DNA of 56,102 nucleotides from Elusimicrobiota bacterium. GTDB taxonomy: Bacteria > Elusimicrobiota > Elusimicrobia > UBA1565 > UBA9628. Each line of letters starts with the position of its first letter. The first letter of the stretch is position 1. The position numbers were made by a program, and so were the translations under genes. Shown here in pieces: positions 1,797 to 54,307 of the stretch. Location: the NCBI GenBank assembly GCA_043745445.1, contig JAYTSX010000239.1, positions 1 through 56,102 of the forward strand, written 5' to 3'. The notes below the pieces were generated by a model, which worked only from the letters and a program-made list of their open reading frames with translations, was not told the origin of the DNA and did not search any database.

Positions 1797-1866
1797 TGAA
1801 TAAAACATTGTCATCCTGTGAACAACTTGTGTACGCCTGCCGGCAACTGGGGATGGCTCATCAAAC

Positions 1867-1903
1867 TGTGGATGGTGTGGATAACTCTCTATGGTTATCC
1901 ACA
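1867..1903. promoter_or_regulatory. second DnaA-box cluster in the dnaA-dnaN spacer
   Basis: TGTGGATGG (1867-1875, 2 mismatches), perfect TGTGGATAA (1876-1884) and perfect TTATCCACA (1895-1903). Confidence 0.6.
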
Positions 1904-1981
1904 ACGTCGATCTGTTTTTTCTCTGGGGGAAATCCCGTTATGCACCGTGTCCCCCGCTCGATGAAGGAGAGGATGATTTAA

Positions 1982-3100: not shown

Positions 3101-3195
3101 TCACGGAAAAAGAGAAGCCCGGGCGCTGGTCGACATCAGGGGACCTGGTTAAGAGCTTTACGTACCGTGCAGGAACCGTCAACGATAAACTGACG

Positions 3196-3402
3196 TTGTT
3201 AAATGCCGTGTGGGACAAGGAATGCGGCGCCTATTCGAAGTATTGGGCGTTAGTGGCCGTTAAGAAAGGGACATTATTCGTTCGTCCGAAGAGCGCGGCA
3301 GCGGCCCAAGAGCTTCAGATGAGATCTGGAGTGCTGATTAAAGCTCTTAATAAGTATTTTAGCCGTCCGTGGATCGTTGCCGTCAAGACGACTTATCGTT
3401 AA
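3196..3402 (+). CDS. DUF721 / DciA-like small protein (start uncertain)
   Basis: 68 aa from TTG 3196. The W..ecG......a..v..kkGtLfV...saaaaqEL pattern is typical of DUF721, and the position between dnaN and gyrB is conserved. The frame is open back to 3073, and the upstream in-frame peptide (..SGDLVKSFTYRAGTVNDKLTLL) also looks DUF721-like but has no ATG/GTG/TTG. Confidence 0.6.
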   Translation: MLNAVWDKECGAYSKYWALVAVKKGTLFVRPKSAAAAQELQMRSGVLIKALNKYFSRPWIVAVKTTYR

Positions 3403-3441
3403 TTATATTTAGAGGCACGACCGTCGATGTTTCCGGTTTAA

Positions 3442-6009
<2,568 letters not shown>

Positions 6010-6015
6010 CGAATA

Positions 6016-6045
6016 GGTGTCAGGCTTACCGGTAAGCCTGACACC
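6016..6045. repeat. perfect 30-bp palindrome GGTGTCAGGCTTACC/GGTAAGCCTGACACC; short copy of the repeat at 44182-44273
   Basis: Read directly. Located 7 nt after the gyrB stop, with no T-tract. The core GGTGTCAGGCTTACCGG...CCGGTAAGCCTGACACCAAG is shared with the 44.2-kb locus. Confidence 0.85.
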
Positions 6046-6102
6046 AAGCGTCCAAGTTCGCTATCGTTTGAATTTAAACTTTTAAGTTAATCGGAGAAGA
6101 CC

Positions 6103-8616
6103 ATGAGCAAACCCGACAATCAGCCGGATATTACTCCCGAACCCATCGGTAATATTTTTCAGCGCGACCTTGGCGCCGAGATGCGCGGCTCATATCTTGA
6201 CTATTCAATGTCGGTGATCGTCGGGCGTGCTCTGCCCGATGTGCGCGACGGCCTCAAGCCCGTACATCGCCGCATTCTTTACGCGATGCATGATGAGGGC
6301 CTCGCTTCGAACAAGAAGTACTCGAAGTGCGCCGGCGTCGTCGGTGAAGTGCTCAAAAAGTATCATCCGCACGGCGATTCCGCCGTGTATGACGCGATGG
6401 TGCGCATGGTTCAGGAGTTCTCTCTGCTTCACCCTCTGATCGACGGGCAAGGAAACTTCGGGTCCGTCGACGGAGACCCCGCGGCGGCTTATCGTTATAC
6501 GGAGGCCCGCCTCGCCAAGATCGCCGAAGAGGTCATGGCCGACATCGATCAGGACACGGTTGATTTCACCGCCAATTTCGATGGTACGACGACCGAACCG
6601 AGCGTTATGCCCGCAAAAGTTCCGAACCTTCTCGTCAACGGTTCTTCCGGAATTGCGGTCGGCATGGCGACCAACATCCCTCCGCACAACCTCTCCGAGG
6701 TATGTGAGGCGGCGATAACCCTCATTAAGGATCCGAAGATCGAGAGCAAAGAGCTCATGAAGATCATCAAAGGCCCCGACTTCCCCACCGGCGGCATCGT
6801 GCGGGGCAAGGCGGGAATTAGGGACTACTTTGAGACCGGCCGCGGCTCTGTGCGTATCCAGTCGAAAACCAACATCGAAGATATTAAAGGCAACCGCCAG
6901 GCGATCATCATCGACGAGCTTCCCTACCAGGTCAACAAGGCGACCTTACTTGAAACCATCGCCGACCTCGTGCGCGACAAGAAGATTCCCGACATCTCCG
7001 ACATCCGCGATGAGTCCGACCGCACCGGCATGCGCGTGGTCATTGAAATCAAGCGCGACGGCAACGCGAATGTGGTCTTAAACCAGCTGCTGAAGCACAC
7101 GCAGATGGAAACGACCTTCGGCGTGATTCTTCTTTCTCTTGTCGACGGCCGCCCGAGAGTATTGGGCGTGCGCGACATGCTTGGTCACTTCATTCAGCAT
7201 CGCAAGGTCGTCGTCACGCGCCGCACGAAGTTCCAGCTGCGCAAGTGCCTGGATCGCGCCCACATCCTGGAAGGCCTGATCACCGCGATCAAGAATATCG
7301 ACCGCGTCATCAAGATCATTCGCGCCGCTAAAGACACGGACAGCGCCCGCGTCGAGTTGATGGAAGCCTTCGAGCTGTCGAAGGCTCAGACGAACGCCAT
7401 CCTCGAGATGCGCCTTGCCAGCCTGACGAAGCTGTCGGTCGGCGACCTTCAAGAGGAGTATGACGGCTTGGTCAAGAAAATCGCGGAGTATAAGGCGATC
7501 TTGGCGGACATCAAGAAGGTTTACGCGATTGTCATCGATGAGCTTGAGGGTGTCAAGAAAGCCTTCGGCAAGCCTCGCCAGACCCAGATCACGACTGAGG
7601 CGGCCGAGATGTCCCTCGAGGACCTGATCCAGAAGGAAAATGTCGTCATCTCCCTCTCGAACACGGGGTATGTTAAGCGTATTCCTGTCGCGACCTACGT
7701 CGCTCAAGGACGCGGCGGTAAGGGCATCACCGGCGCGGACGTTAAGGAAGAAGATTTCATCGAACACTTCTTCGTCACCGACACGCACGCCGCGCTGCTG
7801 TTCTTCACAAACCGAGGCCGCGTATTCGCGCTGAAGGCGTACGAGATTCCTGAGGGCAACCGCACCTCTCGCGGCAAGGCCGTGGTGAATCTTCTCGCCC
7901 TGACCGGCGAGGAAAAAGTGACTTCCGCGATCGCCATATCTTCATTCGAGGAAAAGAAAGGTCAGGAAACCTTCTTGGCGATGGCGACGCGCAACGGCAC
8001 TGTTAAAAAGACGCCGTTGTCTGACTTCGAGAACATCCGCAGAAGCGGAATTATCGCCATCACTCTGGATGAAGGCGATGTGCTTGTCGAGGTTCAGCAT
8101 ACCTCGGGCAAGGACGAACTGCTTGTCGCCACCAAGGACGGAATGGTCATTCGCTTCCCGGAAAGCGACATCCGCTCAATGGGTCGGGGAGCCGCCGGCG
8201 TGCGCGGCATCCGCGTGGACAAGGAAGACAAGGTCGTGGGCATGGAAGTCTTTCCTCCCAACACGAAGAAGACCTTGTTGACGGTGTGTGAGCACGGCCA
8301 CGGCAAGCGCACGGAACTTTCCGAGTACCGTGGTCAGCATCGCGGCGGCGGCGGCATCATTACGATTAAAACGACGGACCGCAACGGCTCCGTGATCGGC
8401 GTCAAGCTCGTGACCGACGACGACGATCTGATGGTGATGACTGAGCAGGGCAAGGCGATTCGCCTGCGCTGCAAAGACATTAAGACCATTTCGCGCAACA
8501 CTCAGGGCGTGCGCCTTGTGCGCCTTGATGAGGTTGATAAGGTGGCGCGCGTCGCTCCGATCGCGACGGAACCGCCTGTCAGCCCCGAACTCCCGATCGA
8601 CGGCGGCAAGAAGTGA
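6103..8616 (+). CDS. gyrA: DNA gyrase subunit A
   Basis: 837 aa. [30 protein letters not shown], active-site [12 protein letters not shown]-terminal beta-pinwheel repeats. Confidence 0.98.
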
Positions 8617-8626
8617 GGCAAGCGGA

Positions 8627-9148
8627 TTGAAGCGGGCTGTTCCCGCGCTGATCCTGACGCTCGCGACCCTTTGGGCCGCGAGCGTCAGGGCCGAGCTTTT
8701 GCTTGAGGCGGTTTCTTGGCAGCGTGCCCGTGTCTCCGGCGCGCGCGTGGTCGCTTGGGAGGACATCGGCCAGATCATCGACGGACCTCCGAAGCTCGAC
8801 GCCCGTTTGCGCGCGCGGCTGACGCTGAAGAACCGAGGGCCGGTCGCGGCCGAGGGCATCCTGCTGCGTTACAGCATGACGGGGCGCGTGGCGCCTATTG
8901 CCGGTGAGAAGCCTGAGACCGCTTGGGCGATTCCTTTCATGGTCGACGAGAAGCGTGTGCCGAAAGTCGGGCCGAATATGACGCAGGACGTTTTTCTGAC
9001 GACCTCTCCCGCCCTGGAACTTTATCTGGCTAAGCTCGCGCGCGCTGGATGGTGGGCGGACCGCATGAAGCTCCAGGTGAGGATCGAGCCGCATCCCGGC
9101 GAGGTCGCCGTGCGTTCGCTTGAGAGCGTGCTTGAGGTCTCCAAATGA
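8627..9148 (+). CDS. hypothetical secreted protein
   Basis: The track ORF 8516-9148 overlaps the gyrA 3' end. I trimmed it to the in-frame TTG 8627, giving MKRAVPALILTLATLWAASVRA (signal peptide). ATGA overlap with the serS start. No recognisable motif. Confidence 0.55.
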   Translation: MKRAVPALILTLATLWAASVRAELLLEAVSWQRARVSGARVVAWEDIGQIIDGPPKLDARLRARLTLKNRGPVAAEGILLRYSMTGRVAPIAGEKPETAWAIPFMVDEKRVPKVGPNMTQDVFLTTSPALELYLAKLARAGWWADRMKLQVRIEPHPGEVAVRSLESVLEVSK

Positions 9149-10446
9149 TTGATCTCGGCGGCGCGCGTAAAAACAACGCCGGCGTTCGCCAGGCGCTCTC
9201 ATCGCGCAATCCCAAGTTCGGCGTCGTCTTCGACGAACTTCTCAAGCTCGACGAAGGCCACCGCGCGCTCATGATCGAGGTCGAGGCGATGCGCGCGCAG
9301 CGAAATGCCGCCTCTCAGCAGATTGGCAAGGCCATGGCCGCCAAGGATGCGGCCACCGCCGATAAGCTCAAGGCCGAGGTGTCCGAGCTTAAGACGCGCA
9401 TGACCGAAAAAGAAGCCGCGCTGCTGGTCTCTGAGAAACTCATCCGGGATGCGGCGATGGTTATCCCTAACATTCCCCACTCTTCCGTTCCTGTCGGCAA
9501 GGACGAAACCGAAAACCCGGTCATCCGAACTTCCGGTCAACCGCGCCAATTTGATTTCAAAGCGCTGGATCATCAGACCGTCGCCGAAAAGCTCGGAGCG
9601 CTCGACATGAAGACGGGCGTTAAGCTCGCGGGTTCTCGCTTCGCTCTCTGGCAGGGGCCGGGGGCCAAGCTCCTACGCGCGCTCGGCAACTTCCTGCTTG
9701 ATCGCCATGAGAAGAGCGGCTATCTTGAGGTTCATCCCCCGTATCTCGCTCTGCCTGAAATCCTCGAGGGCACGAGCCAACTGCCTAAGTTCGAAGCGGA
9801 CATGTACAAGACCGTGAATGTCGAGGGCGATAAGACAAGCACTCTTTACCTGATTTCGACCTCCGAGATCGTTCTGACGAACATGGTCCGGGAGGAAATT
9901 CTTCCCGCTGAGAAACTCCCGATGAAACTGACGGCGTTGACCGCCTGCTTTCGTCAGGAGGCCGGCACCTACGGCAAGGACGTCCGCGGCGTCATTCGCA
10001 ATCATCAATTCGATAAAGTCGAACTGGTCTGGATCACGAAGCCGGAAGATTCGCTTGCCGCACTCGAGCAACTGACCATAGACGCGGCCGGGACCCTCGA
10101 GGCCTTGGAGCTTCCGTACCGGGTGATTCATCTGTGCACGGGCGACATGGGATTTGCCGCACAGAAGACCTACGATATCGAAGTCTGGATGCCGTCGGAG
10201 AACAAGTACCGCGAAATCTCATCTTGCTCCGACTGCTCCGACTTTCAGGCGCGACGCATGCAGGCTCGTTTCCGCCGCGACGCGAAAGCTCCGGCCGAGC
10301 TCGTCCATACCTTGAACGGCTCCGGCGTGGCCGTGGGGCGTCTGGCCGCTTCGATTCTCGAGAACAATCAACAGGCCGATGGCTCTGTTCTCATTCCGCG
10401 GGTGCTCGTCCCGTATTTTGGCGCCGAGCGGATCGCGGTCCCCTGA
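9145..10446 (+). CDS. serS: seryl-tRNA synthetase
   Basis: 433 aa. N-terminal coiled-coil arm; class II motifs (..FRQEAG..GKDVRGVIRNHQFDKVE.., GSGVAVGRLAASILENNQ). Confidence 0.95.
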   Translation: MIDLGGARKNNAGVRQALSSRNPKFGVVFDELLKLDEGHRALMIEVEAMRAQRNAASQQIGKAMAAKDAATADKLKAEVSELKTRMTEKEAALLVSEKLIRDAAMVIPNIPHSSVPVGKDETENPVIRTSGQPRQFDFKALDHQTVAEKLGALDMKTGVKLAGSRFALWQGPGAKLLRALGNFLLDRHEKSGYLEVHPPYLALPEILEGTSQLPKFEADMYKTVNVEGDKTSTLYLISTSEIVLTNMVREEILPAEKLPMKLTALTACFRQEAGTYGKDVRGVIRNHQFDKVELVWITKPEDSLAALEQLTIDAAGTLEALELPYRVIHLCTGDMGFAAQKTYDIEVWMPSENKYREISSCSDCSDFQARRMQARFRRDAKAPAELVHTLNGSGVAVGRLAASILENNQQADGSVLIPRVLVPYFGAERIAVP

Positions 10447-30415: not shown

Positions 30416-31203
30416 GGCCAGCGGTAAAGTGCTGCGGCGTTGTCGCTCGTGCGGCGGGCGACCTCATCGAGCGGGACCCCGTGGACCTCGGCGAGCGTCG
30501 CCGCGATCTCGGGAATGGCCGCGGGTTCGTTGCGCTTGCCGCGGGAGCTTTGGGGGGGTAGATACGGGGAATCGGTTTCGAGCACGACCGCCCCTAAGCC
30601 GGCGCGGCGGAAGCCCTCACGCAGGGCGGCGTTCTTCTTATAGGTGAGAGGACCGTCGGCGCCGAGGGCGAAACCGAGTATTGAGCATGCCTCCGCCTCT
30701 TCAGGTGTGCCGGTGAAGCAGTGGATGACGCCCCAGAACCGGCCTGGCGCGGGCTTAGCCGGGAAGAGTTCTTTCAGCATCGGCACGAGATCGGCGTACG
30801 CGTCGCGGCAGTGGATGATGAGGGGTACATCCCAGTCCCGGCCGGCGGCCGCAATCGCGGCGAAGGCGCGTCGCTGGATGTCGTGCGGCACTTCGGCTTT
30901 CGCGTAGTCGAGGCCGATTTCACCGATGGCCACGGCCTCCGGGGCGGCGTCGAGCGCGGCGCGAAGCTTGGAGAGGAAGGCATCGTCGTACTTATCCGCG
31001 TAGTAGGGATGCAGTCCCAAGGTACAGCGCACATTGGCCGGCCGCGCGCGCGCGATGGCGACGGCGCGCGCCCACTCATCGGGGTGATCGGCGATCTCGA
31101 CGATGCGTGAAACGCCGGCCGCGGCCGCGCGTTCAAAGACGGAATCCCGGTCCGCGTCGAACTGGGGATCGCCCAGGTGGGCATGAGTATCGACGAAGAT
31201 CAT
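30412..31203 (-). CDS. tatD: TatD-family metal-dependent hydrolase/DNase
   Basis: 263 aa. FVDTHAHL, EIGLDY, IIHCRDA, ETDSPYL. Confidence 0.92.
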   Translation of the reverse strand: MIFVDTHAHLGDPQFDADRDSVFERAAAAGVSRIVEIADHPDEWARAVAIARARPANVRCTLGLHPYYADKYDDAFLSKLRAALDAAPEAVAIGEIGLDYAKAEVPHDIQRRAFAAIAAAGRDWDVPLIIHCRDAYADLVPMLKELFPAKPAPGRFWGVIHCFTGTPEEAEACSILGFALGADGPLTYKKNAALREGFRRAGLGAVVLETDSPYLPPQSSRGKRNEPAAIPEIAATLAEVHGVPLDEVARRTSDNAAALYRWP

Positions 31204-32651
31204 CGCGCGGGGAAACGCGCCAGCAGCGACACGGCCTCAGGGTCCCGTTCGGTCGCGAGATAGCTTGAGCGGATCTTGGAGGCCTCCGGCATCTTGGCGA
31301 AGTAGTGATCAAGGACCATCACCTTGGCGAAGGCGCGTACGGCGGGATTGGGGTCGCGCAGCGCGGTCGTCAGCGCCGGAAGCGCGTTCTTGCCCTCGAG
31401 GTCGGCGTAAAGATTAAGAGCGCGGATGCGAACCAGGGGCTTGTCGCTGCCGAGCCACGCATCTCGACGCGCGCGGACCGCCTCCAGTTCCTTCTTTCCG
31501 ATCTCGAACAGGGCGAAGTCGGCGTTGCGCCTTACGATCTCGGTGTCGTCGTCAAGGAGCTCGCCCAGCCGGTCGATCCAGCGCGGATCCTTGAATGAGG
31601 CCGCGCGCAGACAGGCCTCGGCGCGAATAGAGGCGTCCTCAAGAGCAAAGCGCGCCCCGAGCCCCTCGACCGGCGCGTGCTGAAGCAGCGACTCGCGCCG
31701 CGAATCGAGGGTTTCGCGGATGCGGCGTTCGACGGGCTCGTCCCCGTCGGCGAAGTCCGGATTCTGACGGTAGAGCGCGAGGTAATACGGCAGGGCGCTT
31801 TCGGCGTCGGCGCGGCGCTTGTCGTAAATTTGAGCCAGCTTCGAGGCGCTGTACAGGTCGTCGGGATTGCGATCCCACGACGCGGCGAGCCAACGCATTG
31901 CCCCGTCCATATCCTTCTGCTGGAGGGCCAGCGCGCCCATGATTTGCGCCGCCCCCGCTTGGTTGGGATTCTTGGCGAGCGCTTCGGAAGCGACGGCGTG
32001 AGCAAGGGCGAAGTCGCCGCGCGCGAATAACGCCATGCCCAGAGCCGCGAGCTTTCCGGGATGGTTAAGGTCGCCTTGGTGCAACTCTTCGAGAGCGGTG
32101 CGCGCGAGATGGGCGGATTCACCGCCCTGCACGGCCTCGTCGCCCGCGGCAAGGCGTGAGAGTGTGTCGAGCGACTGGCGGCCTTCGGGCGTGTCGGGAT
32201 GCTCGCGCGCGATTTCCGTGTGGACCGGGATGGTCAAGGCCGCGTCTCGTAGGCCGTTGAGACGGGCGCGCATTTCGGCGGCGGGGCCGCCTGCGCCGAG
32301 AATGACCTCGGCGTGGGCGCGCCTGAACGCGTCATCGCTGAATAGTTGGCGCGCGGCGTACAAAACGTAAAAAGAGTCGACCGGGTGTCCGGCCTTCCAA
32401 AGCGCGTCAGACAGACGCATGTGAGAGCGTGCATCGAGCAGGTGAGCGCGGAACTCCTTGCGCGAAAGATTCAAGCGCTCCTCGGCCTCGGCGCGTGAGG
32501 GCGCGGCGCTGCCGGCGGGGGCTCCCGCGCGCGAAGGCGCCTTGAACCAGCTCATCATGATGAGCGAGTAGGCGGCAAACGCGACCGCGATCATCAACAA
32601 CGCGATCACGATGAGCGTGTTTGTCCGGCGCGAGTCTTTCATCTGTTTCAT
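31200..32651 (-). CDS. membrane-anchored TPR + HEAT(PBS-lyase-like)-repeat protein
   Basis: 483 aa. N-terminal TM (TLIVIALLMIAVAFAAYSLIMM), TPR-like helical repeats, C-terminal HEAT-like repeats (..LRDPNPAVRAFA..). Confidence 0.7.
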   Translation of the reverse strand: MKQMKDSRRTNTLIVIALLMIAVAFAAYSLIMMSWFKAPSRAGAPAGSAAPSRAEAEERLNLSRKEFRAHLLDARSHMRLSDALWKAGHPVDSFYVLYAARQLFSDDAFRRAHAEVILGAGGPAAEMRARLNGLRDAALTIPVHTEIAREHPDTPEGRQSLDTLSRLAAGDEAVQGGESAHLARTALEELHQGDLNHPGKLAALGMALFARGDFALAHAVASEALAKNPNQAGAAQIMGALALQQKDMDGAMRWLAASWDRNPDDLYSASKLAQIYDKRRADAESALPYYLALYRQNPDFADGDEPVERRIRETLDSRRESLLQHAPVEGLGARFALEDASIRAEACLRAASFKDPRWIDRLGELLDDDTEIVRRNADFALFEIGKKELEAVRARRDAWLGSDKPLVRIRALNLYADLEGKNALPALTTALRDPNPAVRAFAKVMVLDHYFAKMPEASKIRSSYLATERDPEAVSLLARFPAR

Positions 32652-33168: not shown

Positions 33169-35856
33169 ATGACCGCAATCACAGAGGCCCTTTCGCAGGA
33201 CCAGCCTACACGCGAGCTCCTGGAATTTTTCCTTCCTTTGCACCGCGCCTTCGAGCCCCGCCGAAAAATTCTGCTCGATGCGCGCCGCCGCTCCCTCGAA
33301 CAGGCGCACGCGGGGGACATGCCCGGCTACCGGCCCGAATCAGAAGCGACCGCCGGGGCCTGGCGTCTGGCCGTTCCCCAATGGGCGAGGGATCAGCGCA
33401 ACCAGATCACGGGCCCCGCCGACAATCCAAAGCTGCTCGTTGCGATGTGCAACACGAAGGATCCCGGCTGCATGCCTGATGGCGAGGATTCCATTACAAC
33501 GGATTGGGATCGAGTCCGGGCTGCTCATCGCAACACCGTCGCGGCGATTCAGGGGACCTTGTCCTTCACGGACGCGGCCGGCAAGACCACAGCGATCAAG
33601 CCGAGCAAGCAGGTCATGTTTTACCGACCACGCGGCCTTCATCTCGATGAGACGCATGCGCTCCCGGATGAAACGGTGTCCGGCTCGTTGTTCGACCTCG
33701 CCGCGCTCTTTTACGGGACGGCGGATCAGCGCCGTCAGGCGGTGAAGACCCCCGAGCTCCAGGCGAAGCTTTGTTTCTATATTCCCAAAACCGAATCTTT
33801 CGAGGAGGCTGCCTGGTTCTCCGATGTGATCGCGGCCATGGAAGCGGCGATCGGCATACCCGTGGGCACGACAAAAATCATGTTCCTGATTGAGTCTTTG
33901 CCCGCGGCGTATCAGATCGAGGAAATCCTTTTCACGGCCAAGCGGCATGTGATCGGTCTCAACCTGGGACGATGGGACTACATGGCGAGCCTGCTTCACT
34001 TTAAGCTCGCCGATCCGAAATGGATTCTTCCGGACCGCAATACGATTCCTCACGACATCCCTTTTTTTCAGAACTTGCGAAAACGATTGGTGGACGCGTG
34101 CCACCGGCGCGGCGCGCTCGCCATCGGCGGCATGAGCGCGCTGTTTCCTGATCGCACCGACGCGGCGATCAACACGCGCGCATTGGAAAGGCTCACCGCC
34201 GACAAGAAGAACGAGGCCTCCTTCGGCTTTGACGGCGCCTGGACGGGCCATCCCGATCAGCACGAGGGCGCGATGTCGCAATTCCCGGCTCCGAACCAGC
34301 TCGGCGTCATGCATGCGGACGCAAAACAGCCCGACCTGACTCCTTCGCCTGCCGGTGCCGGCGCGGTGACCGTCGCCGGCACGCGCGACGCGATCCGCAC
34401 CTGCATCGAATATCGCTTTGGCGTGCTGTCCGGCCTCGGCGCGCGCATGATCAAGGGCTACGACAAGACCGGCGCGTTGATCGGCAACTTCATGGAGGAC
34501 CTGGCGACCGACCGCATCTATCGCCTGATGATCGCCCAGCGCGTGCGTCACGGCGTGAAGACGGCTGAAGGCGTCGTTATCACCGCCGCGCTCGTTGAGA
34601 GTTGGTTCAATGAGGAGCTCAATAAGATTTTGGCCGCGAATCCGGAATCCGCCACGGCGGATAAATACAAACGAGCCAGCGAATGGAGCCAGCAGATGAT
34701 TAAGCAAGCCGTCGCCCCCATGCCCGAGGGCATAAAGACCTGGAAGTACCCTCAAGCTGAATTCGCGAAGATGTATGCCCCGCATGAGAAGGTGCATCCT
34801 TCCGACAAGTTGCGCGCCCTGCTTCTGGAGAAATTCGCCAACCGCGTCAAGAACCCGTCGAAGTCCTTTCTGCACACGGCCGGCGCGTATGACGCGATGA
34901 CGGCGTCCCTGCTGACCGACCTCGGCTTTGAGGCGATCTATGCCAGCGGTTGGCAGCTGGCCGTCGCCCATAATATGTACCCCGACATCGGCATCTACCC
35001 CTCGCATCAGATGGTGGAGCTCGCGCGCGAGCTCATGCGCGGCATCGAGGGCACCCGCGACCGTCACTTCTACGACGACGGCGGTCAGATTCTCAACACG
35101 CCCCCGATCTTCGCCGACATTGAGGCGGGATTCGGCGGTCCGACCCAGACGTTCACGCTCACCCGCGAGTTGATCAGAGCCGGAGTGGGCGGCGTCCACT
35201 TGGAAGACCAGGATCCGGCGGAGCGGACCTGCGGCCACATCGTCGCGCATCACGGCGTGAAGCGCGAGAAGGTCCTCGTGCCGACGAACAAGTGGATCGA
35301 GAAGCTCATCGCGGTGAAAGCCGCCGCCCAGGCGTCGGAGACCAACCTCGTCGTCATCGCGCGCACGGACGCCGTCGACGGCGCGGTGCCCGGCGGCCGA
35401 ACCGGAAGCGTTCAGCACGCGATCGACCGCGCGCTCGAGGCCGCCTCGCTCGGCGTCGATGTGATCTGGCCCGAGTTCAACAACACGGACCTCGAGGGAC
35501 CGCAGGAGTTCGCCGAGGGCGTGCACAAGTACTACCCGAACCAGATGCTCGGCTTCAACCTCTCGCCCTCTCTCCATTGGGGCAAAGCCAAGCAGGAAGG
35601 CAAGCTGATCACCAACGAGATGCTAGGCAAGATGGGCTTCACGCTCCAGTTCTCGACCTTGCTCGCCTTCCGCACGATCGGGATGGCGCTTGAGAACTCA
35701 CTGAAGGGCTTCCACACGCGCGGCATCGATGCACTGGCGGACCTGCAGCTCTCCGAGATCGGTCACCCCAACGGTGAGCCGCGATCCCGCATGCACCAGA
35801 AGTTCGCGGGCACCAACCGCTGGCTCACACTCGAGAAGGTCAGCAAGGGCGTCTAA
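33169..35856 (+). CDS. bifunctional malate synthase (N-terminal, aa 1 to about 515) / isocitrate lyase (C-terminal, aa about 560-895) fusion protein
   Basis: 895 aa, uninterrupted. MS-A signature KRHVIGLNLGRWDYM (nt 33940-33984), FGFDGAWTGHP, MEDLATDRIYR. ICL blocks YASGWQ, MYPD.GIYP, ADIEAGFGG, GVHLEDQ, TCGH, ARTDA, LSPSLHW. Confidence 0.9.
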   Translation: MTAITEALSQDQPTRELLEFFLPLHRAFEPRRKILLDARRRSLEQAHAGDMPGYRPESEATAGAWRLAVPQWARDQRNQITGPADNPKLLVAMCNTKDPGCMPDGEDSITTDWDRVRAAHRNTVAAIQGTLSFTDAAGKTTAIKPSKQVMFYRPRGLHLDETHALPDETVSGSLFDLAALFYGTADQRRQAVKTPELQAKLCFYIPKTESFEEAAWFSDVIAAMEAAIGIPVGTTKIMFLIESLPAAYQIEEILFTAKRHVIGLNLGRWDYMASLLHFKLADPKWILPDRNTIPHDIPFFQNLRKRLVDACHRRGALAIGGMSALFPDRTDAAINTRALERLTADKKNEASFGFDGAWTGHPDQHEGAMSQFPAPNQLGVMHADAKQPDLTPSPAGAGAVTVAGTRDAIRTCIEYRFGVLSGLGARMIKGYDKTGALIGNFMEDLATDRIYRLMIAQRVRHGVKTAEGVVITAALVESWFNEELNKILAANPESATADKYKRASEWSQQMIKQAVAPMPEGIKTWKYPQAEFAKMYAPHEKVHPSDKLRALLLEKFANRVKNPSKSFLHTAGAYDAMTASLLTDLGFEAIYASGWQLAVAHNMYPDIGIYPSHQMVELARELMRGIEGTRDRHFYDDGGQILNTPPIFADIEAGFGGPTQTFTLTRELIRAGVGGVHLEDQDPAERTCGHIVAHHGVKREKVLVPTNKWIEKLIAVKAAAQASETNLVVIARTDAVDGAVPGGRTGSVQHAIDRALEAASLGVDVIWPEFNNTDLEGPQEFAEGVHKYYPNQMLGFNLSPSLHWGKAKQEGKLITNEMLGKMGFTLQFSTLLAFRTIGMALENSLKGFHTRGIDALADLQLSEIGHPNGEPRSRMHQKFAGTNRWLTLEKVSKGV

Positions 35857-46496: not shown

Positions 46497-47339
46497 CTAC
46501 TTTGTTTTAGGCCCTTCGGCCCGGCGCTTTTTGTCCCAGCGGATGCCCCGCTCATCCTTGGGCACCGAGACGAGCAGGAAGGGCGCGGTGGCGCCATCCG
46601 CGACAGCCTCATCGGGCCCGGGGCCCTCCTCAAACCAGCGCAGAAGGTAGCGCTCCTTCTCCGCGGCAATGCCGATCAGCCGCGCGCGGTAGCCGGAAGT
46701 CGGGCGCGGCCCGACGAACACCGCCGCGATGCGGTTTTTGGAGAAATCAATCGTGGGCGGCGTCTCGCGCGACAGTCGGCCCCAGAGCTCGGTCCAGGCG
46801 GCGGCGTCCGACACCACGAGCTCTCCGGTTTCGACGGCCCCCCCGTAGGCCCCGCTCCAGACTCCGGGGCCGTCCTCAACGGCGCCGAGCATGCCGCCGG
46901 ACTCGCGTCCCGGTATAATGGCGGCCGTCTGGCCAGGCAGGGCGACGCTCTTGTCGCGCGCGCCGTCGATGCCGCGGCGCATGCGTGTGAATTCATTGCC
47001 CATCTCGCGCAGCTGAGCCATGCGCTCTTTCTTCTCGACCTCGGACAGCGGCGGCGGTGCGCCGCGATTTTCTTGACCGCGGTCTCCCTCCTCGATGTGC
47101 TTGCTGATCTGCTGGATGCCCAACTCTAAGGTTTCGCGGCTCAGGTTGGCGGCCTGCATCTCGTTGGTGTAGCCGGTCGTGGCTCGGTCGAGCGGGGTCA
47201 CGACCAGGTTCACGGAAGGTTCGGGCGCGGCGAGTTCAGGCGTTTCCGGCGGCGCCTCAACGGGCGCGCGTTTGCAGGCGGCGCCAAGTAGAAGCGCCGC
47301 GGCCAACGCGAGACGGTTACTTTGTCTTGGGGCTGCCAA
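46497..47339 (-). CDS. putative lipoprotein with PrcB_C-like C-terminal domain
   Basis: 280 aa. Lipobox-like signal (LALAAALLLGAAC). The C-terminal ..AAWTELW....PPTIDFSKNRIAAVFVGPRPTSGYRARL....ERYLLRW.....PFLLVSVP resembles the PrcB C-terminal domain pattern. The TTG start overlaps the coaD 3' end, so the start is uncertain. Confidence 0.5.
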   Translation of the reverse strand: MAAPRQSNRLALAAALLLGAACKRAPVEAPPETPELAAPEPSVNLVVTPLDRATTGYTNEMQAANLSRETLELGIQQISKHIEEGDRGQENRGAPPPLSEVEKKERMAQLREMGNEFTRMRRGIDGARDKSVALPGQTAAIIPGRESGGMLGAVEDGPGVWSGAYGGAVETGELVVSDAAAWTELWGRLSRETPPTIDFSKNRIAAVFVGPRPTSGYRARLIGIAAEKERYLLRWFEEGPGPDEAVADGATAPFLLVSVPKDERGIRWDKKRRAEGPKTK

Positions 47340-47811
47340 ATTTCAGCTTAAGCCGGCGGGCGACGAAGGGCGGAACGAACTGGTCGGTGCCGGCGCCCAG
47401 TCGCGCGATCTCGCGGACCATGGAGGAGGCCAGGTAGGTGTATTGATCATCCGGCATCAGGAAAACGGTCTCGACATCCTTATTGAGGCGGCGGTTGAAG
47501 GAGGCAAGTTGGAATTCGTAGTCCATGTCGGAGACCACGCGCAGGCCGCGGATGAGGACCTTGGCCTTCTTCTTGCGCATGTAGTCCACGAGCAGGCCGG
47601 AGATGGTATCGCAGTCCACATTGGGCAGGCTGCGGATGGACTCCTCGACCATCTCGATGCGCTCGGACACGGAGAAGACATTCTTCTTCGAGGCGTTGTT
47701 CGACACGGCGACGATGACCTGGTCGAAGATCTTGGAGGCGCGCTGGATGATGTCGAGATGGCCCTTCGTGAGGGGGTCGAAACTGCCGGGGTAGACCGCG
47801 ATTCGGCTCAT
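47317..47811 (-). CDS. coaD: phosphopantetheine adenylyltransferase
   Basis: Trimmed to the ATG at 47811. Reads MSRIAVYPGSFDPLTKGHLDIIQRA...VIVAV..N..K...FS..ER. Confidence 0.93.
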   Translation of the reverse strand: MSRIAVYPGSFDPLTKGHLDIIQRASKIFDQVIVAVSNNASKKNVFSVSERIEMVEESIRSLPNVDCDTISGLLVDYMRKKKAKVLIRGLRVVSDMDYEFQLASFNRRLNKDVETVFLMPDDQYTYLASSMVREIARLGAGTDQFVPPFVARRLKLKFGSPKTK

Positions 47812-47922
47812 AACCGCAGTATAACGGCGCGTGACCTGCCTGTCAACGAGCGCGCTGACTCGCACCGGCGCGAGTTGCGGGTCCCCCTGGCGCGAGTTTA
47901 AAAGGGGGGCTACACTCCGGGT

Positions 47923-50900
47923 ATGGCCCCGAATCCCCTCCGGGGAGCCCTCGCCTTCCTCTTAGTTGCCATCCTGGCGCTGCCCGCGCGCCCGGTGGAA
48001 GTTTCCGTACCCGGCGAAGCGGGCAAGTCGGGCACGGGGCAGGGCCAGGTCGGCACAGTCGGCGGGTTGACGCCCGGTGTCAGCGGCGGCGTCTCCGTCG
48101 TGCCGAGCCTTGGTCTCGGGCTTGCTCCCGCGCTTGGGCCCAATGTCGCGCCGGCGCCGATCGCCCAGCCAGCCGCTGCAAATCCGGCCATCAGCCCCAT
48201 CGATGTCGGGCATCTTAACTTCGGCGAGCGCGTCAAAAAAACGCTCGCACCGCATGGGGAGGAAATCTGGCAGCCGTCCGAGACCCCCGCAAAGCCGGCC
48301 CCCGCCAAGCCCGCCGCGCAGAAAAAGTTGTTCGGCAAGCCGTCGCCGCCCGCGATCGACGCGCCCTCGTACTCCGCCGCGTCGGCCGGAGAGATCGACG
48401 CCCAATTAGTCGGCGCGGCGAAAGCCGCGATCAAGTCGGGCGTGGCGCCCTCGGACGCCAGGCTCAAGAAGTTGTACGACGGTTCCGACGATTGGAACGG
48501 AACTGAAGAGACCGGCGTTTTTCCAGCCGTAGATCCGTCCGCGGCGCACCCGACGGGGCTGACGCCGGCGAGCAAAACGGCCGCGGTTTCGGGATTTAAG
48601 ATTACGCCGCCGTCTCCAAAGGGCGGGTCAGCGAAGAACTGGATCAAGAGCGTTTTTGGCTCGGCGACGGGAGCGGCGTCGGAGGCCATGATTTCGCTCG
48701 GGTCGGTGTTCTCCAAACCGAAAGCCGAAATTCCTGAAGCCGCCACGCTCAAAGTGATCGAGCCCAAGACCGTGCCCTGGGTCAAGCCCGAGCGCGGCGA
48801 CACGCTGCTTGTCCGTTCGGGACGCGGGACGAGCTACGAGGCGCTCGGCTATCGCGTGCTGTACGCGCCTCCCGTCTCGCCGGATTTGGCCGTGAGGAAG
48901 GCGAGTGATGAGGGCGTGAGCGTGCGCCTCGCGCGTGGGCGGGACGCGGCCGAAACAGCGACCTTGCGCGCGCGCTTTGCGATCTTCAACGGCCTGATCG
49001 AATCAAATTTCGCCGCGCTCGAACTGATCGCGCAAAGTTCGTCGAAGATGACGGTGAAAACCGCGCGGGCCGTTCAGGGCCATGTCCTGGCTATGGCCGA
49101 GGCCTATGCGGGTCTCGGTGAGGGTGACGGCGTGCGCGAGGCGGACGCGCTCGGCGTGAAGCTCGAAGTCCAGCGCCTGGGCGTGAAGATCGAAGCCGCG
49201 GTCCGCGGCCTCTCCGACTCCGATCTTCTGCCACCGGCGGCTGTCGAGCTCGTGATGCCGATCGACAAGCGCTCGCTGCACAAGTATCTCAACTATCTTC
49301 ACCAGCAGGCGCTTGAGGCCGTCGGCAAGTCCAACACCTCCTCACCCGCGAACTTGACCGTGCGCATGGGTTCGTGGACCAATGAAAAAGCCGTCTCGCT
49401 CGTGGACCTCTCCGAGCATCCGCTCGTCAAGGGCACGCGCGTCGTCTCGCCGGGGTTCAAGGCTTTGCTTGAGGCGTTTTCGCGCTCCAAGGATACACCG
49501 AAAGGTTCGCTCATCATGCAGGACCATCAGTTTTGGGGCCACTTTCAACTCGGCCATCACTCCGCCGAGATTTACGCCAGCTTCCTGCAGCCTGACGAGG
49601 GCGGCATGATTCGCGTGCGCTACCAGGAGTGGGGCTCCGGGTACGACAACCAGACTCGCCTCTATTACGTCGGGCGTCTTCTTCACAAGGCGGGCTTTCA
49701 TGTCGATCAGAAAAACGGATTTTTGACGGCCGTGATCGATAAGGACCACGCCTCGCAGACCGTGGACCAGATGACCGACACCTTCGCGCTCGTCGTGCAG
49801 GCACTGCACGCGACGGTGGGGGTGGACTTCGCTTTGCCGCTGCTCGTCAAAGGGGCAAAGTCGAGCGAGGAGGTGGGCCGGCGCATCGACGATTGGGTCG
49901 ACACGGTGATCGGCGAGGGCACCTTGCCTTTTTATGTCCATGACGATCATGACGCGATGGTCGCAGGCTGGCAGAAATACCGGGCCGAGCAGAGGCCGCG
50001 CGCGATCCTGCGCGCGGCGCTCGATAAGAATCTCGACGACTTGGGCCTGCCGGCAATTCCCGCGGACGAGAGGCTCGGCCAACGCACGATCGACCGCTTC
50101 GTCAACCAGCCGATCGAGGCCGCCATCGCGCGCGGGCAACTCCTCCTCGCGTCCGATGGTCGTGTCGCCCGTAACCCGATCTATGATCCTTTCGCGGCCT
50201 TGGCCAAAGCCTTCGCCGGCGGGGCGGTCGCCGGTGCGCGCCTGGCGGAGGTTGTTTCTTCGCTCGATCCCGCGCTGTTTCAATACGAGACGATCGGCAC
50301 GCTCGGCGCGTTGACAGTGGAGCGCGCCCAACGCCGGCTCGATCCCAACGGCTGGGTGACGATCTACGCTCTGCGCGATCCGAAGTCAGGACAGATCGGT
50401 CTGGCTCGCGCGGAGTTGCTCACGCTCGAGCCGGGAGTCAAGGGGCTCACGCTTTCGCCGGCCGCGCTGTTCTCGATCTTGGCGGCCCAGGGCCATCCCA
50501 TCGCCTCATTTGAACCCTCGGAAGTTCCCCCCGGCGCCGCCCATTTTCAGACGCTGCTGCGCGCCACGCCGCCCGCGCGTGCTGCCTTCGGCCGCAGCTT
50601 CTCAGGCATGGCCGCGAGCCCGGGCCACGGGCGCACCTTGCTCGCGCGGATCACCTACGACAAGGCCAAGGCGGCGGGGGGCGGCTCTATCTTCGTCGCG
50701 GCCTACACCACGCCCGACGACCTCGACGCGATCCGCGCTTCGAAAGCGGTGATCACGACCTCGGGAGGACTGCTCAGCCACGCCGCGATCACGACGCGCG
50801 AGATGGGAATTCCCGCCGCGATTCTGCCCGGCGTCGATTGGACGGGCGGCGCCGCGTCCTTAACCACCTTCGACTTGAGCGCGCCGATCCGCGCCGGGCC

Positions 50901-53205
50901 GCTGACCGCGCGCCTCGCCAAGCCCGCGGCGCCGGTCGCGCTGCTTGAAGGCGAGGTGGTGCGTCTTGACCCCGCGACGGGCGTCGTCGAAATATTCCCG
51001 CCGGGAGCCAGCGCCGCCCTCCTCGACGCGGCGGGCGCGCTCGAACGCTTTGACGCCACAGGAGATGCCGGGAACATGGCGCAATGGCTGAAGCTGCGGC
51101 TCGATACACAGGCCCTTCAGCCCGAACAGAAAACGATCCTCGTGCGCGAGACGCTGACGGGCCTTTTCTCCCGCGCTCTGAACGATGCCCGCGCCGTCCC
51201 CGCGCTGGCGCGCGCGCTCTCCGTCATCCCCGGCCGGCAGTACAAGATCGGCCTCATCGCCCAGGACGCGCTCGATACGCGTTTTACCGCCGAGCTTGAG
51301 GACGCTGTCGCTGATCTTAAGTCGCGCCGTGGCCTCGTCGACGAGTCACTAGCAACGGAGTCCGTCGAGCGCCTGTGGCGTGAGGCGGAAACTCGCGCCC
51401 GCGGACTGCGCGCGATCGGCGTGGAGCTGGCGCGCCCCAAGCTCGAGCTCGCCACCTATGAAATTTCGCTCGCGGGCTTGAAGGCCGACGCGAAGGAGCG
51501 TCATGAGAAGCTGTTGGCCGAGGAGATGGCCGAACTGCAGACCCACGCCCGGGTGTTTCCCGCCGCGACGGTCGAGGCTCTGCCACGCATTAAGTCGGCT
51601 ATCGCCAAGGCTCGTCGCCGGGGCATGAATGCGGACATGATTGGCCAGTGGGAGGAGCAGGCTCAGCGTCTTGAGCGGCTTCACCGCGTGACCATGGAAG
51701 CGCGCGCTCCGACCGTTCTCCCGTTGGCTTCAATTATGGATGTGGACGTGCCGTGGGTCGGCGGCAAGGCGGCAAAGCTCGGGGAGATCGCGGCCGTCGT
51801 GCGCGCGGCCGGCGGCGAGGTCACACCGGGCTTTGCGCTCACTATCCACGCCTACCGGCGCTTTCTCAAGGAAACCGGAATTGCCGAGCGCCTGGAGGCG
51901 CTCGGAGCCGATGCACGCCTGACGCCCGAGCAGCGCTCGGAGCGCGCGCGACGCCTGATTCTCGACGCGAAGCTGAGCCCAAAAACGGGCGTGGGCCAGG
52001 AAATTCTCGCGGGTCTCGCCGCCCAGGGTCTGGATAAAACCCCGCTGGCCGTGCGCTCCTCGGCCGTGGACGAAGACGGCGCTGAGGCCGCCTTCGCAGG
52101 CGCGGGCGACACTCACCTTTATGTGGACCCGTCGGAATTACTTGAGCACGTCAAAGATGTTTGGGCTTCGCTCTGGAACCCGCGCGCGCTTCTCTACCGC
52201 GAGACGCGCGGGCTGTCCACCGCAAACCTGGCCCAGGCCGTCGTGATCCAGGCGATGGTCGCCTCCGAGGTCTCCGGCGTCGCGTTCACCCAGGATCCGG
52301 TCTCCGGCAGCTCGGGGCGTGTGATCGTCAACGGCGCGTTCGGCCTTGGCGAGGGCATCGTGTCCGGACGCGTGGCGCCCGATCAGTATGTTCTCGCCAA
52401 GACGTCCGGGCTTGAGATTCTTCCACCCATGATTTCTGATAAGAAGCTCGCCATTGTGCGCGGTAAGAACGGCAAGGGCACGATCGAGCACAAGATGCCT
52501 CCCGAGTGGCGCCGCCGCCGCTCGATGTCTCCGGCGAAGCTCAAGCTTCTTTCGGATGTCTCGGTGGCTCTCGAGCGGCACTTCGGCTACGCGCTCGACA
52601 TCGAGTTCGGTTTTGTCGGCGACAAGCTTTATATTCTGCAGTCGCGCTCGGTCACGAGCAACGGCGCCGAGGCGCAAGCGCCGGTGCCGGCGATCCCGCA
52701 GGGCTCGGCGATGAAGCCGGCGGCCGCGCCCAAGCCCAAGCGCCTTATGTTCGTCTGCACCGGCAACACCTGCCGCTCGCCGATGGCGGCGCATTTGGCG
52801 CGGGAGAAGCTCTCTCGCCGCGGCCGGCCCGATATCGAGGTGGTCTCGCGCGGTTTACGGGTTCGGGTCGAAGGCCAGGACATGAACTCGAAGGCCGTGT
52901 CGGCGCTCGAGGCCCAGGGCGTGGACGCCGAGGGCCATCGCGCGACTTCGCTCACCGGTCCCGAGATCGCGGGAACGAATCTTATTCTCACGATGACCGA
53001 GGAGCAGGCGAAGGAGGTGCTCTGGCGCTACCCTGAGGCCAAGGGGAAGGTGTTCTCGCTCGCCGAGTACGCCAAGCGCGGCGGCGATGTCGCCGATCCT
53101 TACGGCGGTGACGACGCCGCGTACCAGGCGGCGGCCACCGTCATCGGCGACGCGCTCGACGCCTTCGTGGAGCGAATTCCTGCCGGCGCGACCGCGAGGC
53201 CTTAG
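47923..53205 (+). CDS. 1760-aa multidomain protein: N-terminal hydrophobic anchor/signal, P/A/G-rich region, about 600 aa unknown, PEP-utilizer swivel phosphohistidine domain, helical linker, PPDK_N-type ATP-grasp domain, LMW phosphotyrosine phosphatase
   Basis: Uninterrupted ORF. Swivel domain aa about 893-1027 (GGLLSHAAITTREMGIPAAI). PPDK_N aa about 1266-1578 (VGGKAAKLGE, LAVRSSAVDEDG, VWASLWNPRALLYR, SGVAFTQDP, GLGEGIVSG, LYILQSR). LMW-PTP aa about 1607-1752 (LMFVCTGNTCRSPMA, DPYGG). Confidence 0.85.
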   Translation: MAPNPLRGALAFLLVAILALPARPVEVSVPGEAGKSGTGQGQVGTVGGLTPGVSGGVSVVPSLGLGLAPALGPNVAPAPIAQPAAANPAISPIDVGHLNFGERVKKTLAPHGEEIWQPSETPAKPAPAKPAAQKKLFGKPSPPAIDAPSYSAASAGEIDAQLVGAAKAAIKSGVAPSDARLKKLYDGSDDWNGTEETGVFPAVDPSAAHPTGLTPASKTAAVSGFKITPPSPKGGSAKNWIKSVFGSATGAASEAMISLGSVFSKPKAEIPEAATLKVIEPKTVPWVKPERGDTLLVRSGRGTSYEALGYRVLYAPPVSPDLAVRKASDEGVSVRLARGRDAAETATLRARFAIFNGLIESNFAALELIAQSSSKMTVKTARAVQGHVLAMAEAYAGLGEGDGVREADALGVKLEVQRLGVKIEAAVRGLSDSDLLPPAAVELVMPIDKRSLHKYLNYLHQQALEAVGKSNTSSPANLTVRMGSWTNEKAVSLVDLSEHPLVKGTRVVSPGFKALLEAFSRSKDTPKGSLIMQDHQFWGHFQLGHHSAEIYASFLQPDEGGMIRVRYQEWGSGYDNQTRLYYVGRLLHKAGFHVDQKNGFLTAVIDKDHASQTVDQMTDTFALVVQALHATVGVDFALPLLVKGAKSSEEVGRRIDDWVDTVIGEGTLPFYVHDDHDAMVAGWQKYRAEQRPRAILRAALDKNLDDLGLPAIPADERLGQRTIDRFVNQPIEAAIARGQLLLASDGRVARNPIYDPFAALAKAFAGGAVAGARLAEVVSSLDPALFQYETIGTLGALTVERAQRRLDPNGWVTIYALRDPKSGQIGLARAELLTLEPGVKGLTLSPAALFSILAAQGHPIASFEPSEVPPGAAHFQTLLRATPPARAAFGRSFSGMAASPGHGRTLLARITYDKAKAAGGGSIFVAAYTTPDDLDAIRASKAVITTSGGLLSHAAITTREMGIPAAILPGVDWTGGAASLTTFDLSAPIRAGPLTARLAKPAAPVALLEGEVVRLDPATGVVEIFPPGASAALLDAAGALERFDATGDAGNMAQWLKLRLDTQALQPEQKTILVRETLTGLFSRALNDARAVPALARALSVIPGRQYKIGLIAQDALDTRFTAELEDAVADLKSRRGLVDESLATESVERLWREAETRARGLRAIGVELARPKLELATYEISLAGLKADAKERHEKLLAEEMAELQTHARVFPAATVEALPRIKSAIAKARRRGMNADMIGQWEEQAQRLERLHRVTMEARAPTVLPLASIMDVDVPWVGGKAAKLGEIAAVVRAAGGEVTPGFALTIHAYRRFLKETGIAERLEALGADARLTPEQRSERARRLILDAKLSPKTGVGQEILAGLAAQGLDKTPLAVRSSAVDEDGAEAAFAGAGDTHLYVDPSELLEHVKDVWASLWNPRALLYRETRGLSTANLAQAVVIQAMVASEVSGVAFTQDPVSGSSGRVIVNGAFGLGEGIVSGRVAPDQYVLAKTSGLEILPPMISDKKLAIVRGKNGKGTIEHKMPPEWRRRRSMSPAKLKLLSDVSVALERHFGYALDIEFGFVGDKLYILQSRSVTSNGAEAQAPVPAIPQGSAMKPAAAPKPKRLMFVCTGNTCRSPMAAHLAREKLSRRGRPDIEVVSRGLRVRVEGQDMNSKAVSALEAQGVDAEGHRATSLTGPEIAGTNLILTMTEEQAKEVLWRYPEAKGKVFSLAEYAKRGGDVADPYGGDDAAYQAAATVIGDALDAFVERIPAGATARP

Positions 53206-53251: not shown

Positions 53252-54307
53252 TTAGTCGCGGGCGCGGCGAAGCGCCGCGACGGCTTTCTCAATGCGAGCG
53301 AGGCAGACGCCCGGATCGGGGCGGCCTTCTTTTGGAGAGAAGCGCGGATCGTTCATGGCGCCCGCGACGACGGCTTCAAGAGCCGGGATCGCCTCGACGC
53401 GCTTGAAGACGACAAGCGCCTCGGCGGCTTCGGCCAGGATCTCGGCGTCGGGGTGCCTTGACAGGCGCGACAAGGCTGGGCCGGTTTCGGGGCCAAGGGT
53501 GGTGGCGATGTGGATAAGAGGAATCATCGTTTCCCAGCGCGCGCTTTCGGAACGCAAGGCTTCGGTCACCACGGGCAGGGCCTGAGGCGCGAGCCAAATC
53601 GCGATCTCCGTGCGGCGCGCGTCGAGGGCCATGACGGCGGCGGCGCGGGCGGCGCCGAGCGGCGGGAAGTAGGACACTAAGGCGAGAATCGCATTGGCGG
53701 AGTCCACGCCGCGCGAACGGCCGAGGACCGCGAGCGCCGCTTTTTCGAGCACGAGGTCCATGTCTTTAGGCCGCGGGCCGAAGGAGCGCGCCAGACGCGT
53801 CAGGGCTGCGGGATCCGTGCAGCCGAGCCGCGACAGCGAAAGCATCACATCGGTGACGACTTCGCGGGGCAGGTCCTCCTGCGCGAGCGCCGCGCACAGG
53901 ACCCGGCTGACCGAGGCGTCGGGCGCACCAAGTCCGGGCAGACTTTGCGCCGCGAGAGAGCGCACGATCGGGGCTTGCTCACGATTGAGGAGAATGTCCT
54001 CGAGCGGCGGGAACGCGGCGGGGTCACGGATGAGCCCCAGGAACGAGACGGCGAGCAGGCGGACCTTTATGGGGCGCTTGAGCTCCTGAGCGGCGGCGCC
54101 TAAAGCAGGAGCGGCTTTCCAGCCGAGCGGCTCCAGTTCCTTAGACAGGTTCTCCGCCGTAAGATCGGAGTCGCGTATCTCGCGGGCGTCCTTGCCCTTT
54201 TCCGAGACGACGAGCTTCTCGGCGCGCGCCATGACGCGCGCAACGACGGCTTGGGGGTTTTGGGCAGAGGCGGGAGCGGCGAGCGCCAAGAACAGCGCGA
54301 GCCTCAT
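53252..54307 (-). CDS. secreted HEAT-like repeat protein
   Basis: 351 aa. Signal peptide MRLALFLALAAPASAQ. Reiterated helical repeats with ..LGxxxDPxAxPxL.. spacing. 4-nt overlap with the metH stop. Confidence 0.6.
   Translation of the reverse strand: MRLALFLALAAPASAQNPQAVVARVMARAEKLVVSEKGKDAREIRDSDLTAENLSKELEPLGWKAAPALGAAAQELKRPIKVRLLAVSFLGLIRDPAAFPPLEDILLNREQAPIVRSLAAQSLPGLGAPDASVSRVLCAALAQEDLPREVVTDVMLSLSRLGCTDPAALTRLARSFGPRPKDMDLVLEKAALAVLGRSRGVDSANAILALVSYFPPLGAARAAAVMALDARRTEIAIWLAPQALPVVTEALRSESARWETMIPLIHIATTLGPETGPALSRLSRHPDAEILAEAAEALVVFKRVEAIPALEAVVAGAMNDPRFSPKEGRPDPGVCLARIEKAVAALRRARD

Follow-up and report, generated by a model that had tools for sequence, protein, structure and literature searches.

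A single open reading frame (ORF) of 1760 codons plus stop, at 47923..53205 on the forward strand of an Elusimicrobiota contig (56,102 nucleotides, all of it analysed and called the window below), on balance probably codes for a member of the PpsA/PPDK/RPH/GWD superfamily, a swivel-histidine dikinase in which a new acceptor domain is joined, on the same chain, by a phosphatase for the enzyme's own product. Both domains that define this superfamily, swivel-His and ATP-grasp, are present, which by sequence places the protein within it. In the mechanism we propose, the ATP-grasp domain (aa 1266-1590) would bind ATP and transfer the β-phosphate to His953, releasing AMP and Pi. The swivel domain (aa 893-1030) would then carry the phosphate to the adjoining family-specific domain (aa 285-892), where a cluster of H546, D558, Y567, E569, R579, K607, D608 and D635 would bind an acceptor X and catalyse the transfer. 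Finally, the YwlE-type phosphatase (aa 1600-1760, Cys1612) would hydrolyse X-P, so that one polypeptide would both write and erase the mark.

The ORF has no internal stops, as the initial annotation of this DNA had stated, and a purine-rich AAAAGGGGGG lies 13 nt 5' of its ATG. The three domains recognized in that annotation were each returned by Pfam above the gathering cut-off (PF00391, PF01326 and PF01451), in agreement with NCBIfam; their limits had been placed correctly to within about 10-30 residues, and His953 (CAC, 50779-50781) and Cys1612 (TGC, 52756-52758) are exact. The PEP/pyruvate TIM barrel reported as missing is indeed absent, PF02896 having no Pfam match even at E ≤ 1. The swivel domain carries the motif T945-x-x-G-G-x-x-x-H953, in which T945, G948, G949 and H953 are invariant in the orthologues, and it matches the PPDK swivel domain in the PDB (E 4e-13). 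The equivalent of His953 is found in 90% of 51 family members. The ATP-grasp match spans profile positions 3-320 of 328; K1282, R1378, E1561, Q1573 and R1575 are invariant among orthologues, and the closest structures are those of PEP synthase and RPH (E 1e-38 to 2e-45). By sequence, the catalytic domains look intact. The full-length NCBIfam models of PpsA, PPDK and RPH all score far below their cut-offs. An HMM (hidden Markov model) of the linker between swivel and ATP-grasp (aa 1031-1265) matches close relatives only; more distant members have other linkers, or the phosphatase, in this place.

No part of the protein is better conserved than aa 285-892, a region to which the initial annotation had given no assignment. 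The eight residues of the proposed cluster are near- or fully invariant across the family (columns invariant or at least 80-90% conserved across 24-51 diverse members) and, together with G591, are retained down to ∼ 21% identity. AlphaFold2 (AF2) gave a mean confidence (pLDDT) of 80.4 for the whole domain and, with a deeper alignment, a pLDDT of 88.7 and a pTM of 0.86 for aa 470-892. The models contain about 14-16 strands plus helices, laid out as a small β unit, a helical bundle, an eight-stranded α/β core and a second α/β unit. Searches of aa 285-892 against Pfam, and against the PDB by sequence and by profile, gave zero matches; in Foldseek, neither AF2 model had a match at E < 0.001 in the PDB, nor had the core model in BFVD. 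We also considered an internal duplication, as a degenerate ATP-grasp or His domain, and rejected it: hhalign comparisons of all segment pairs were empty.

In an architecture survey of 55 members with segment HMMs, the new domain lies directly N-terminal to the His domain in every one, with the ATP-grasp downstream. In all characterized relatives, namely RPH and HpeH (PMC12167813) and GWD (PMC13553574), it is the second-substrate domain that adjoins the swivel domain, which delivers to it the β-phosphate of ATP taken up at the ATP-grasp. From its position, its conservation and its invariant charged residues we take aa 285-892 to be the acceptor domain.

The phosphatase has the P-loop C1612-T-G-N-T1616-C1617-R1618-S1619 and the acid loop D1725-P-Y-G-G; C1612, C1617, R1618 and D1725 are present and each at least 90% conserved in the orthologues. 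Its best solved relative is the arginine phosphatase YwlE of Geobacillus (4pic; E 4e-24, about 88 bits, over the whole domain), with which it shares an identical FVCTGNTCRSPMAA around the P-loop and a matching acid loop, GD(V/I)ADP(Y/F)GG. The earlier assignment to the low molecular weight protein-tyrosine phosphatases (LMW-PTPs) thus stands at the level of the family (PF01451), but the domain is YwlE-like, with Thr at P-loop position 5, and not of the generic phosphotyrosine type. This Thr (T1616) is near-invariant in the orthologues and is found in 13 of 15 phosphatase domains of the family. According to PMC7772506, which summarizes and extends Fuhrmann et al. (2013), activity on phosphoarginine depends critically on Thr at position 5, a site occupied by Ile in most LMW-PTPs, and a Thr-to-Ile swap shifts specificity towards phosphotyrosine. 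A preference for phosphoarginine is therefore predicted.

About 42 of the surveyed members bear an ATP-grasp, and 16 of these also have the phosphatase, in one of two positions: after the ATP-grasp, as in the clade of the window protein, or between the His domain and the ATP-grasp (11 members). Fusion in two positions and in this many members argues for functional coupling rather than accident, and suggests that the phosphatase acts on something the module makes, most simply X-P. Because the P-loop is of the phosphoarginine type, we infer that X is best sought among groups that form phosphoramidates, for example a protein arginine or another guanidino group, an assignment that is possible but doubtful. 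Rather unlikely, at present, is the wider reading in which the whole family consists of swivel-His dikinases that phosphorylate protein arginine or another N-acceptor, as a system of the Elusimicrobiota's own, unrelated to the Hanks, two-component and McsB kinases; a YwlE-type eraser would be built into many of the members, export or a membrane anchor would be common among them, and the arrays and two-module giants would be products of the family's diversification.

Several observations weigh against the proposed dikinase/phosphatase module or parts of it. Neither by structure nor by sequence does the acceptor domain have a significant relative, and its role is read from position and conservation alone. 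Both AF2 models matched seven arginine kinase entries in Foldseek, with probabilities of up to 0.90, but over ∼ 65 columns and at non-significant E values (0.06-0.4), and the phosphagen kinase family ATP-gua_Ptrans gave no match in a Pfam scan of aa 1-892; recurring as they do in two independent fold searches, these matches may be taken as no more than a weak lead. Some 26 of the 42 ATP-grasp-bearing members have no detected phosphatase; some of these are cut by contig ends, yet with an orthologue that also lacks it (locus L014, below) they indicate that the eraser is not essential to the module. The Ile-type LMW-PTP 2cwd scores almost as well as YwlE, for which reason phosphoarginine specificity is given here as a prediction, and Thr5 P-loops also occur in bacterial LMW-PTPs such as 4egs, whose specificity has not been assigned by assay. 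Finally, the signal-like N-terminus would place an enzyme that requires ATP where ATP is not expected.

This N-terminus has a single Arg followed by a 13-residue hydrophobic stretch within aa 1-24, and those of the orthologues have AxA-type sites (e.g. ..ALA|VEV). It is followed by a spacer with a mean orthologue identity of 0.31, as against 0.69-0.82 in the catalytic parts. By a crude hydropathy and charge rule, 20 of the 55 family representatives have a signal-peptide-like N-terminus, several with textbook AxA or GQT sites, and the larger paralogues have several transmembrane (TM) segments on both sides of the dikinase module; these calls come from a simple hydropathy script, which is insufficient to settle topology. 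The N-terminus could possibly be an anchor that is not cleaved, with the module remaining in the cytoplasm; it could serve delivery into another cell, or the crude signal rule may be wrong.

Table 1. Parts of the dikinase protein and genes around it. Positions are those of the window; aa, amino acid residues.
Feature	Position	Strand	Basis or remark
Signal-peptide-like N-terminus, aa 1-24 (MAPNPLRGALAFLLVAILALPARP)	47923..47994	+	Start and hydrophobic segment kept in all orthologues
Low-complexity spacer, aa 25-284	47995..48774	+	A16 P12 G12 S10 %; no Pfam match
Family-specific domain, aa 285-892, putative phospho-acceptor binding/transfer	48775..50598	+	AF2, adjacency, conservation
Most conserved core, aa 495-740	49405..50142	+	Mean orthologue identity 0.82
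PEP-utilizing swivel phosphohistidine domain, aa 893-1030	50599..51012	+	PF00391 at aa 921-966, E 6e-13
Linker, aa 1031-1265	51013..51717	+	No Pfam match; mean identity 0.53; clade-specific
PpsA/RPH-type ATP-grasp, aa 1266-1590	51718..52692	+	PF01326 at aa 1278-1588, E 1e-74
YwlE-like LMW phosphatase, aa 1600-1760	52720..53202	+	PF01451 at aa 1609-1748, E 2e-24
Cytidylyltransferase-like (coaD-like) gene	47317-47865	-	Divergent, upstream of the dikinase gene
HEAT-repeat gene	53252-54307	-	Convergent, downstream; start overlaps metH-like ORF by 4 nt
Second HEAT-repeat protein gene of the window	31200-32651	-	

The architecture is not confined to this contig. Nineteen full-length homologues (1571-1810 aa, 51-79% identity) from metagenome-assembled genomes (MAGs) of Elusimicrobia/Elusimicrobiota have the three Pfam domains in common. 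HMMs of five segments were run against six-frame translations of 17 related loci, and all five modules lie in one frame in 12 complete loci, that is, in every locus long enough to tell except one. The exception (L014, 9161-13965), an orthologue on a 3.1-Mb Elusimicrobia contig, has a frameshift within the His domain and ends after the ATP-grasp, without the phosphatase; the gene has either decayed to a pseudogene or been broken by an indel error of the assembly. The 19 homologues and the 12 one-frame loci exclude a chance origin of the architecture. A frameshift or chimera in the window gene is likewise ruled out by the orthologous loci, and the initial annotation was right to treat the ORF as one gene.

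A profile of the new domain was compared with 1.84 billion representative proteins and matched ∼ 195 clusters (195 at E ≤ 1e-3, of which 79 at E ≤ 1e-30, counted at 50% identity). All members with a source name are from Elusimicrobiota, Endomicrobium included, most are 1300-7462 residues long, and databases label them by their generic domains only. A scan of a genome collection with the domain profile matched only close Elusimicrobia orthologues, and a word-indexed search with a diverse profile recovered close relatives only. With the family-specific motif HAAITTRE, a metagenome scan yielded 29 loci. Head-to-tail arrays of four or five paralogous genes were found on metagenome contigs of ∼ 62% GC (L027, 1-20126; L031/L038; L033; L043/L045); the genes, of 1700-2000 aa, lie on one strand, and some have the phosphatase between the His domain and the ATP-grasp while others have none. 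Low-GC contigs (29-36% GC; L025, L026, L030, L032, L034, L039, L041) encode giants of 4100-5050 aa, in which a single ORF holds two complete new-domain/His/ATP-grasp modules in tandem.

Other members have HEAT or WD40 regions, the former inside the giant paralogues P0041 and P0086, or clusters of TM helices. Those upstream of the module in P0121 (aa 846-950), P0142 (aa 878-970) and P0113 (aa 661-760) show EExxxR and HxxxN motifs, which we take to be reminiscent of CPBP/CAAX-type intramembrane proteases. Five short paralogues (P0068, P0072, P0074, P0076 and P0093, 560-770 aa) have only the new domain and the swivel domain. Since their catalytic His is replaced (..GG--PQAAI..), they are presumably degenerate and non-catalytic; three of the five are signal-peptide-like by the same crude rule. 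The largest members are P0063 (5403 aa), P0104 (7462 aa) and P0122 (7059 aa), one of which is named phospholipase D-like domain-containing by NCBI.

The order of the domains, which is that of GWD, brings to mind a water dikinase for a glycan or envelope polymer with its own equivalent of a glucan phosphatase; exported by Sec, it would act on a polymer of the periplasm or the cell surface. The signal-peptide-like N-terminus and the long flexible spacer behind it would suit such a role, and reversible phosphorylation of a polymer by a dikinase and a Cys-based phosphatase is an established principle (PMC13553574; PMC9254107). Nevertheless, Pfam found no carbohydrate-binding module (CBM) or other carbohydrate-binding domain in the whole protein or in aa 1-892, the central domain of GWD is all-helical (9HA9) whereas the domain described here is mixed α/β without a fold match, known glucan phosphatases are of the dual-specificity (DSP) and not the YwlE-type LMW class, and ATP is not expected in the periplasm. 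We regard this explanation as unlikely.

LMW-PTPs hydrolyse aryl phosphates, and one could imagine a small-molecule dikinase, similar to RPH or to HpeHI/CreHI/PpsAB, that modifies a phenolic or antibiotic-like acceptor while the phosphatase reverses the reaction or recycles the product. The ATP-grasp is nearest to PEP synthase and RPH, and the T/SxxGGxxxH swivel motif fits the family described in PMC12167813. By fold search, however, the protein does not appear to be an RPH- or HpeH-type enzyme: the rifampin-binding domain of RPH went unmatched in Foldseek although its structures are in the library, no RPH chain being among the listed matches for either model, and sequence and profile searches were equally without a match. 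Catabolic or resistance enzymes do not typically show such huge size, signal-like N-termini, extra TM segments, tandem paralogue arrays or two-module giants, and no genes of either kind were found nearby. A small-molecule acceptor is thus improbable.

The same low probability attaches to a regulatory autokinase, in which the 600-residue domain would sense a signal or bind a partner and the phosphatase would act on the phosphohistidine of the enzyme itself, also a phosphoramidate, to reset it. VadK, a PPDK-derived regulatory kinase, provides a precedent (PMC13400623). The larger paralogues resemble membrane receptors in that the module is preceded by TM clusters and by HEAT or WD40 regions, and the degenerate paralogues without the catalytic His would also fit a regulatory family. 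The invariant His, Arg, Lys, Asp and Glu residues of the domain that adjoins the swivel look catalytic, however, and to our knowledge no member of the LMW-PTP family is a phosphohistidine phosphatase.

Very unlikely, in our view, is a family of secreted effectors that, once exported, would enter the cytoplasm of a host cell or a neighbour, where ATP is present, and there phosphorylate and dephosphorylate a foreign target. Signal-like N-termini are kept in distant members, the N-terminal regions vary, head-to-tail arrays and giant multi-module forms exist, and the family occurs in Endomicrobium, a genus with intracellular symbionts of protists (PMC4505116). Against this, the window gene is single-copy, syntenic and chromosomal amid housekeeping genes, the MAGs are environmental (e.g. 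groundwater), secretion-system genes were not found adjacent, and the multiple TM segments of many paralogues suggest residence in the membrane. An assembly or annotation artefact, in which two or three genes were joined by a frameshift or a chimeric contig, can be practically dismissed: the frameshifted L014, ending without the phosphatase, would fit it, but the 12 complete loci are independent and from different samples, the 19 full-length proteins have diverged to 51-79% identity, and the module order is repeated in distant paralogues.

The dikinase with an acceptor domain and a phosphatase of its own remains the reading we prefer. Few acceptors of swivel-histidine dikinases are known (pyruvate, starch, rifampin, phenolics and prodiginine precursors), and new acceptor domains have each revealed new biology. 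To these the family adds an acceptor-side domain without detectable relatives, with writer and eraser on one chain. Phosphoarginine, the mark that YwlE-type erasers remove, is so far known chiefly from work on Gram-positive bacteria (McsB/YwlE). Should the acceptor be a protein side-chain, the family would represent a new class of protein kinase; should it be an N-acceptor, the β-phosphate of ATP would here drive protein N-phosphorylation by a second route, independent of the first. The scale of the family, with its ∼ 195 clusters, arrays and giants of up to 7462 residues, makes it a major unexplored feature of the poorly understood Elusimicrobiota, and the contradiction of a conserved export-type N-terminus on an enzyme that needs ATP deserves study in its own right.

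The window opens with dnaA, dnaN, gyrB, gyrA and serS (447-10446, + strand) and probably starts in the chromosomal replication-origin region; the dnaA-dnaN-gyrB-gyrA start places the dikinase gene on an ordinary chromosome. The GC content climbs along the window from about 0.52 to 0.65. The downstream HEAT-repeat gene adjoins the dikinase gene in all orthologous loci; M3 and M14 peptidases, CMAS, Lgt, MetH and RecG also recur as neighbours of orthologues. This is only the genome-wide synteny of a narrow lineage: in the low-GC lineage the neighbours differ, the giant ORFs being followed by the housekeeping genes ychF, ribF, tig, clpP and clpX. An operon partner was considered and rejected, since the flanking genes are divergent and convergent and the neighbours are kept only as lineage-wide synteny, from which neither a partner nor a substrate gene can be deduced. 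A role in anti-phage defence was set aside because PADLOC gave no match, and no paralogue of the dikinase was found within the window. Elsewhere in the window, an ORF of 895 aa (33169-35856, + strand) joins malate synthase (MS_TIM-barrel and MS_C, aa 14-512) to isocitrate lyase/PEP-mutase (aa 569-893), which puts both enzymes of the glyoxylate shunt on a single polypeptide.

Among known systems, PpsA and PPDK give the best sequence matches of the ATP-grasp (PpsA) and of the swivel domain (PPDK). The window protein is neither of these enzymes, because it has no TIM barrel; its domain order is permuted as well, and Leu951, two residues before His953, replaces the regulatory Thr described for PpsA and PPDK near the catalytic His (PMC12167813). 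With GWD1 and PWD it shares acceptor-side domains, a His domain with a swivelling phosphohistidine and a C-terminal ATP domain of the PPDK_N type, and the opposition of GWD to SEX4, LSF2 and laforin, a dikinase writer against a Cys-based (CX5R) phosphatase eraser, is likewise comparable. It cannot be counted as a GWD, since CBM45 and CBM20 are missing and the domain preceding the His domain is not helical, whereas the central domain of GWD consists of 20 helices (9HA9; PMC13553574). Moreover, its phosphatase is in cis and of the LMW/YwlE type, while that of GWD is in trans and of the DSP type, and the family is confined to a single bacterial phylum.

The GWD-type order put forward in the initial annotation does agree with that of GWD, but it is not peculiar to it: bacterial PpsAB, CreHI and HpeHI have the same order in split form, one protein carrying the substrate domain and swivel and a second the ATP-grasp (PMC12167813). 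These two-component dikinases and RPH have homologous ATP-grasp and swivel (T/SxxGGxxxH) domains, and in the former the substrate domain is N-terminal to the swivel, as in the window protein. The window protein differs in being a single chain of about twice the size, in which the ATP-grasp comes last and to which a signal-like N-terminus, a spacer and a phosphatase are added; its substrate domain shows no detectable similarity to the rifampin-binding or HpeH domain. VadK illustrates that a dikinase scaffold can be turned into a regulatory kinase (PMC13400623).

The phosphatase resembles YwlE, PtpB and DARP in its P-loop (CTGNTCRSPMA, with Thr at position 5) and its DP[FY]GG acid loop, but YwlE is a stand-alone protein of ∼ 150 residues that opposes McsB, a kinase of the phosphagen-kinase fold, whereas the phosphatase described here is fused to a dikinase. 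Literature searches turned up no account of either the architecture or the new domain, in keeping with the earlier suggestion that this arrangement had not been described. Compared with these systems, the chemistry and the scaffold are known; new are the acceptor domain, the YwlE-type eraser in cis and the phylum-wide expansion.

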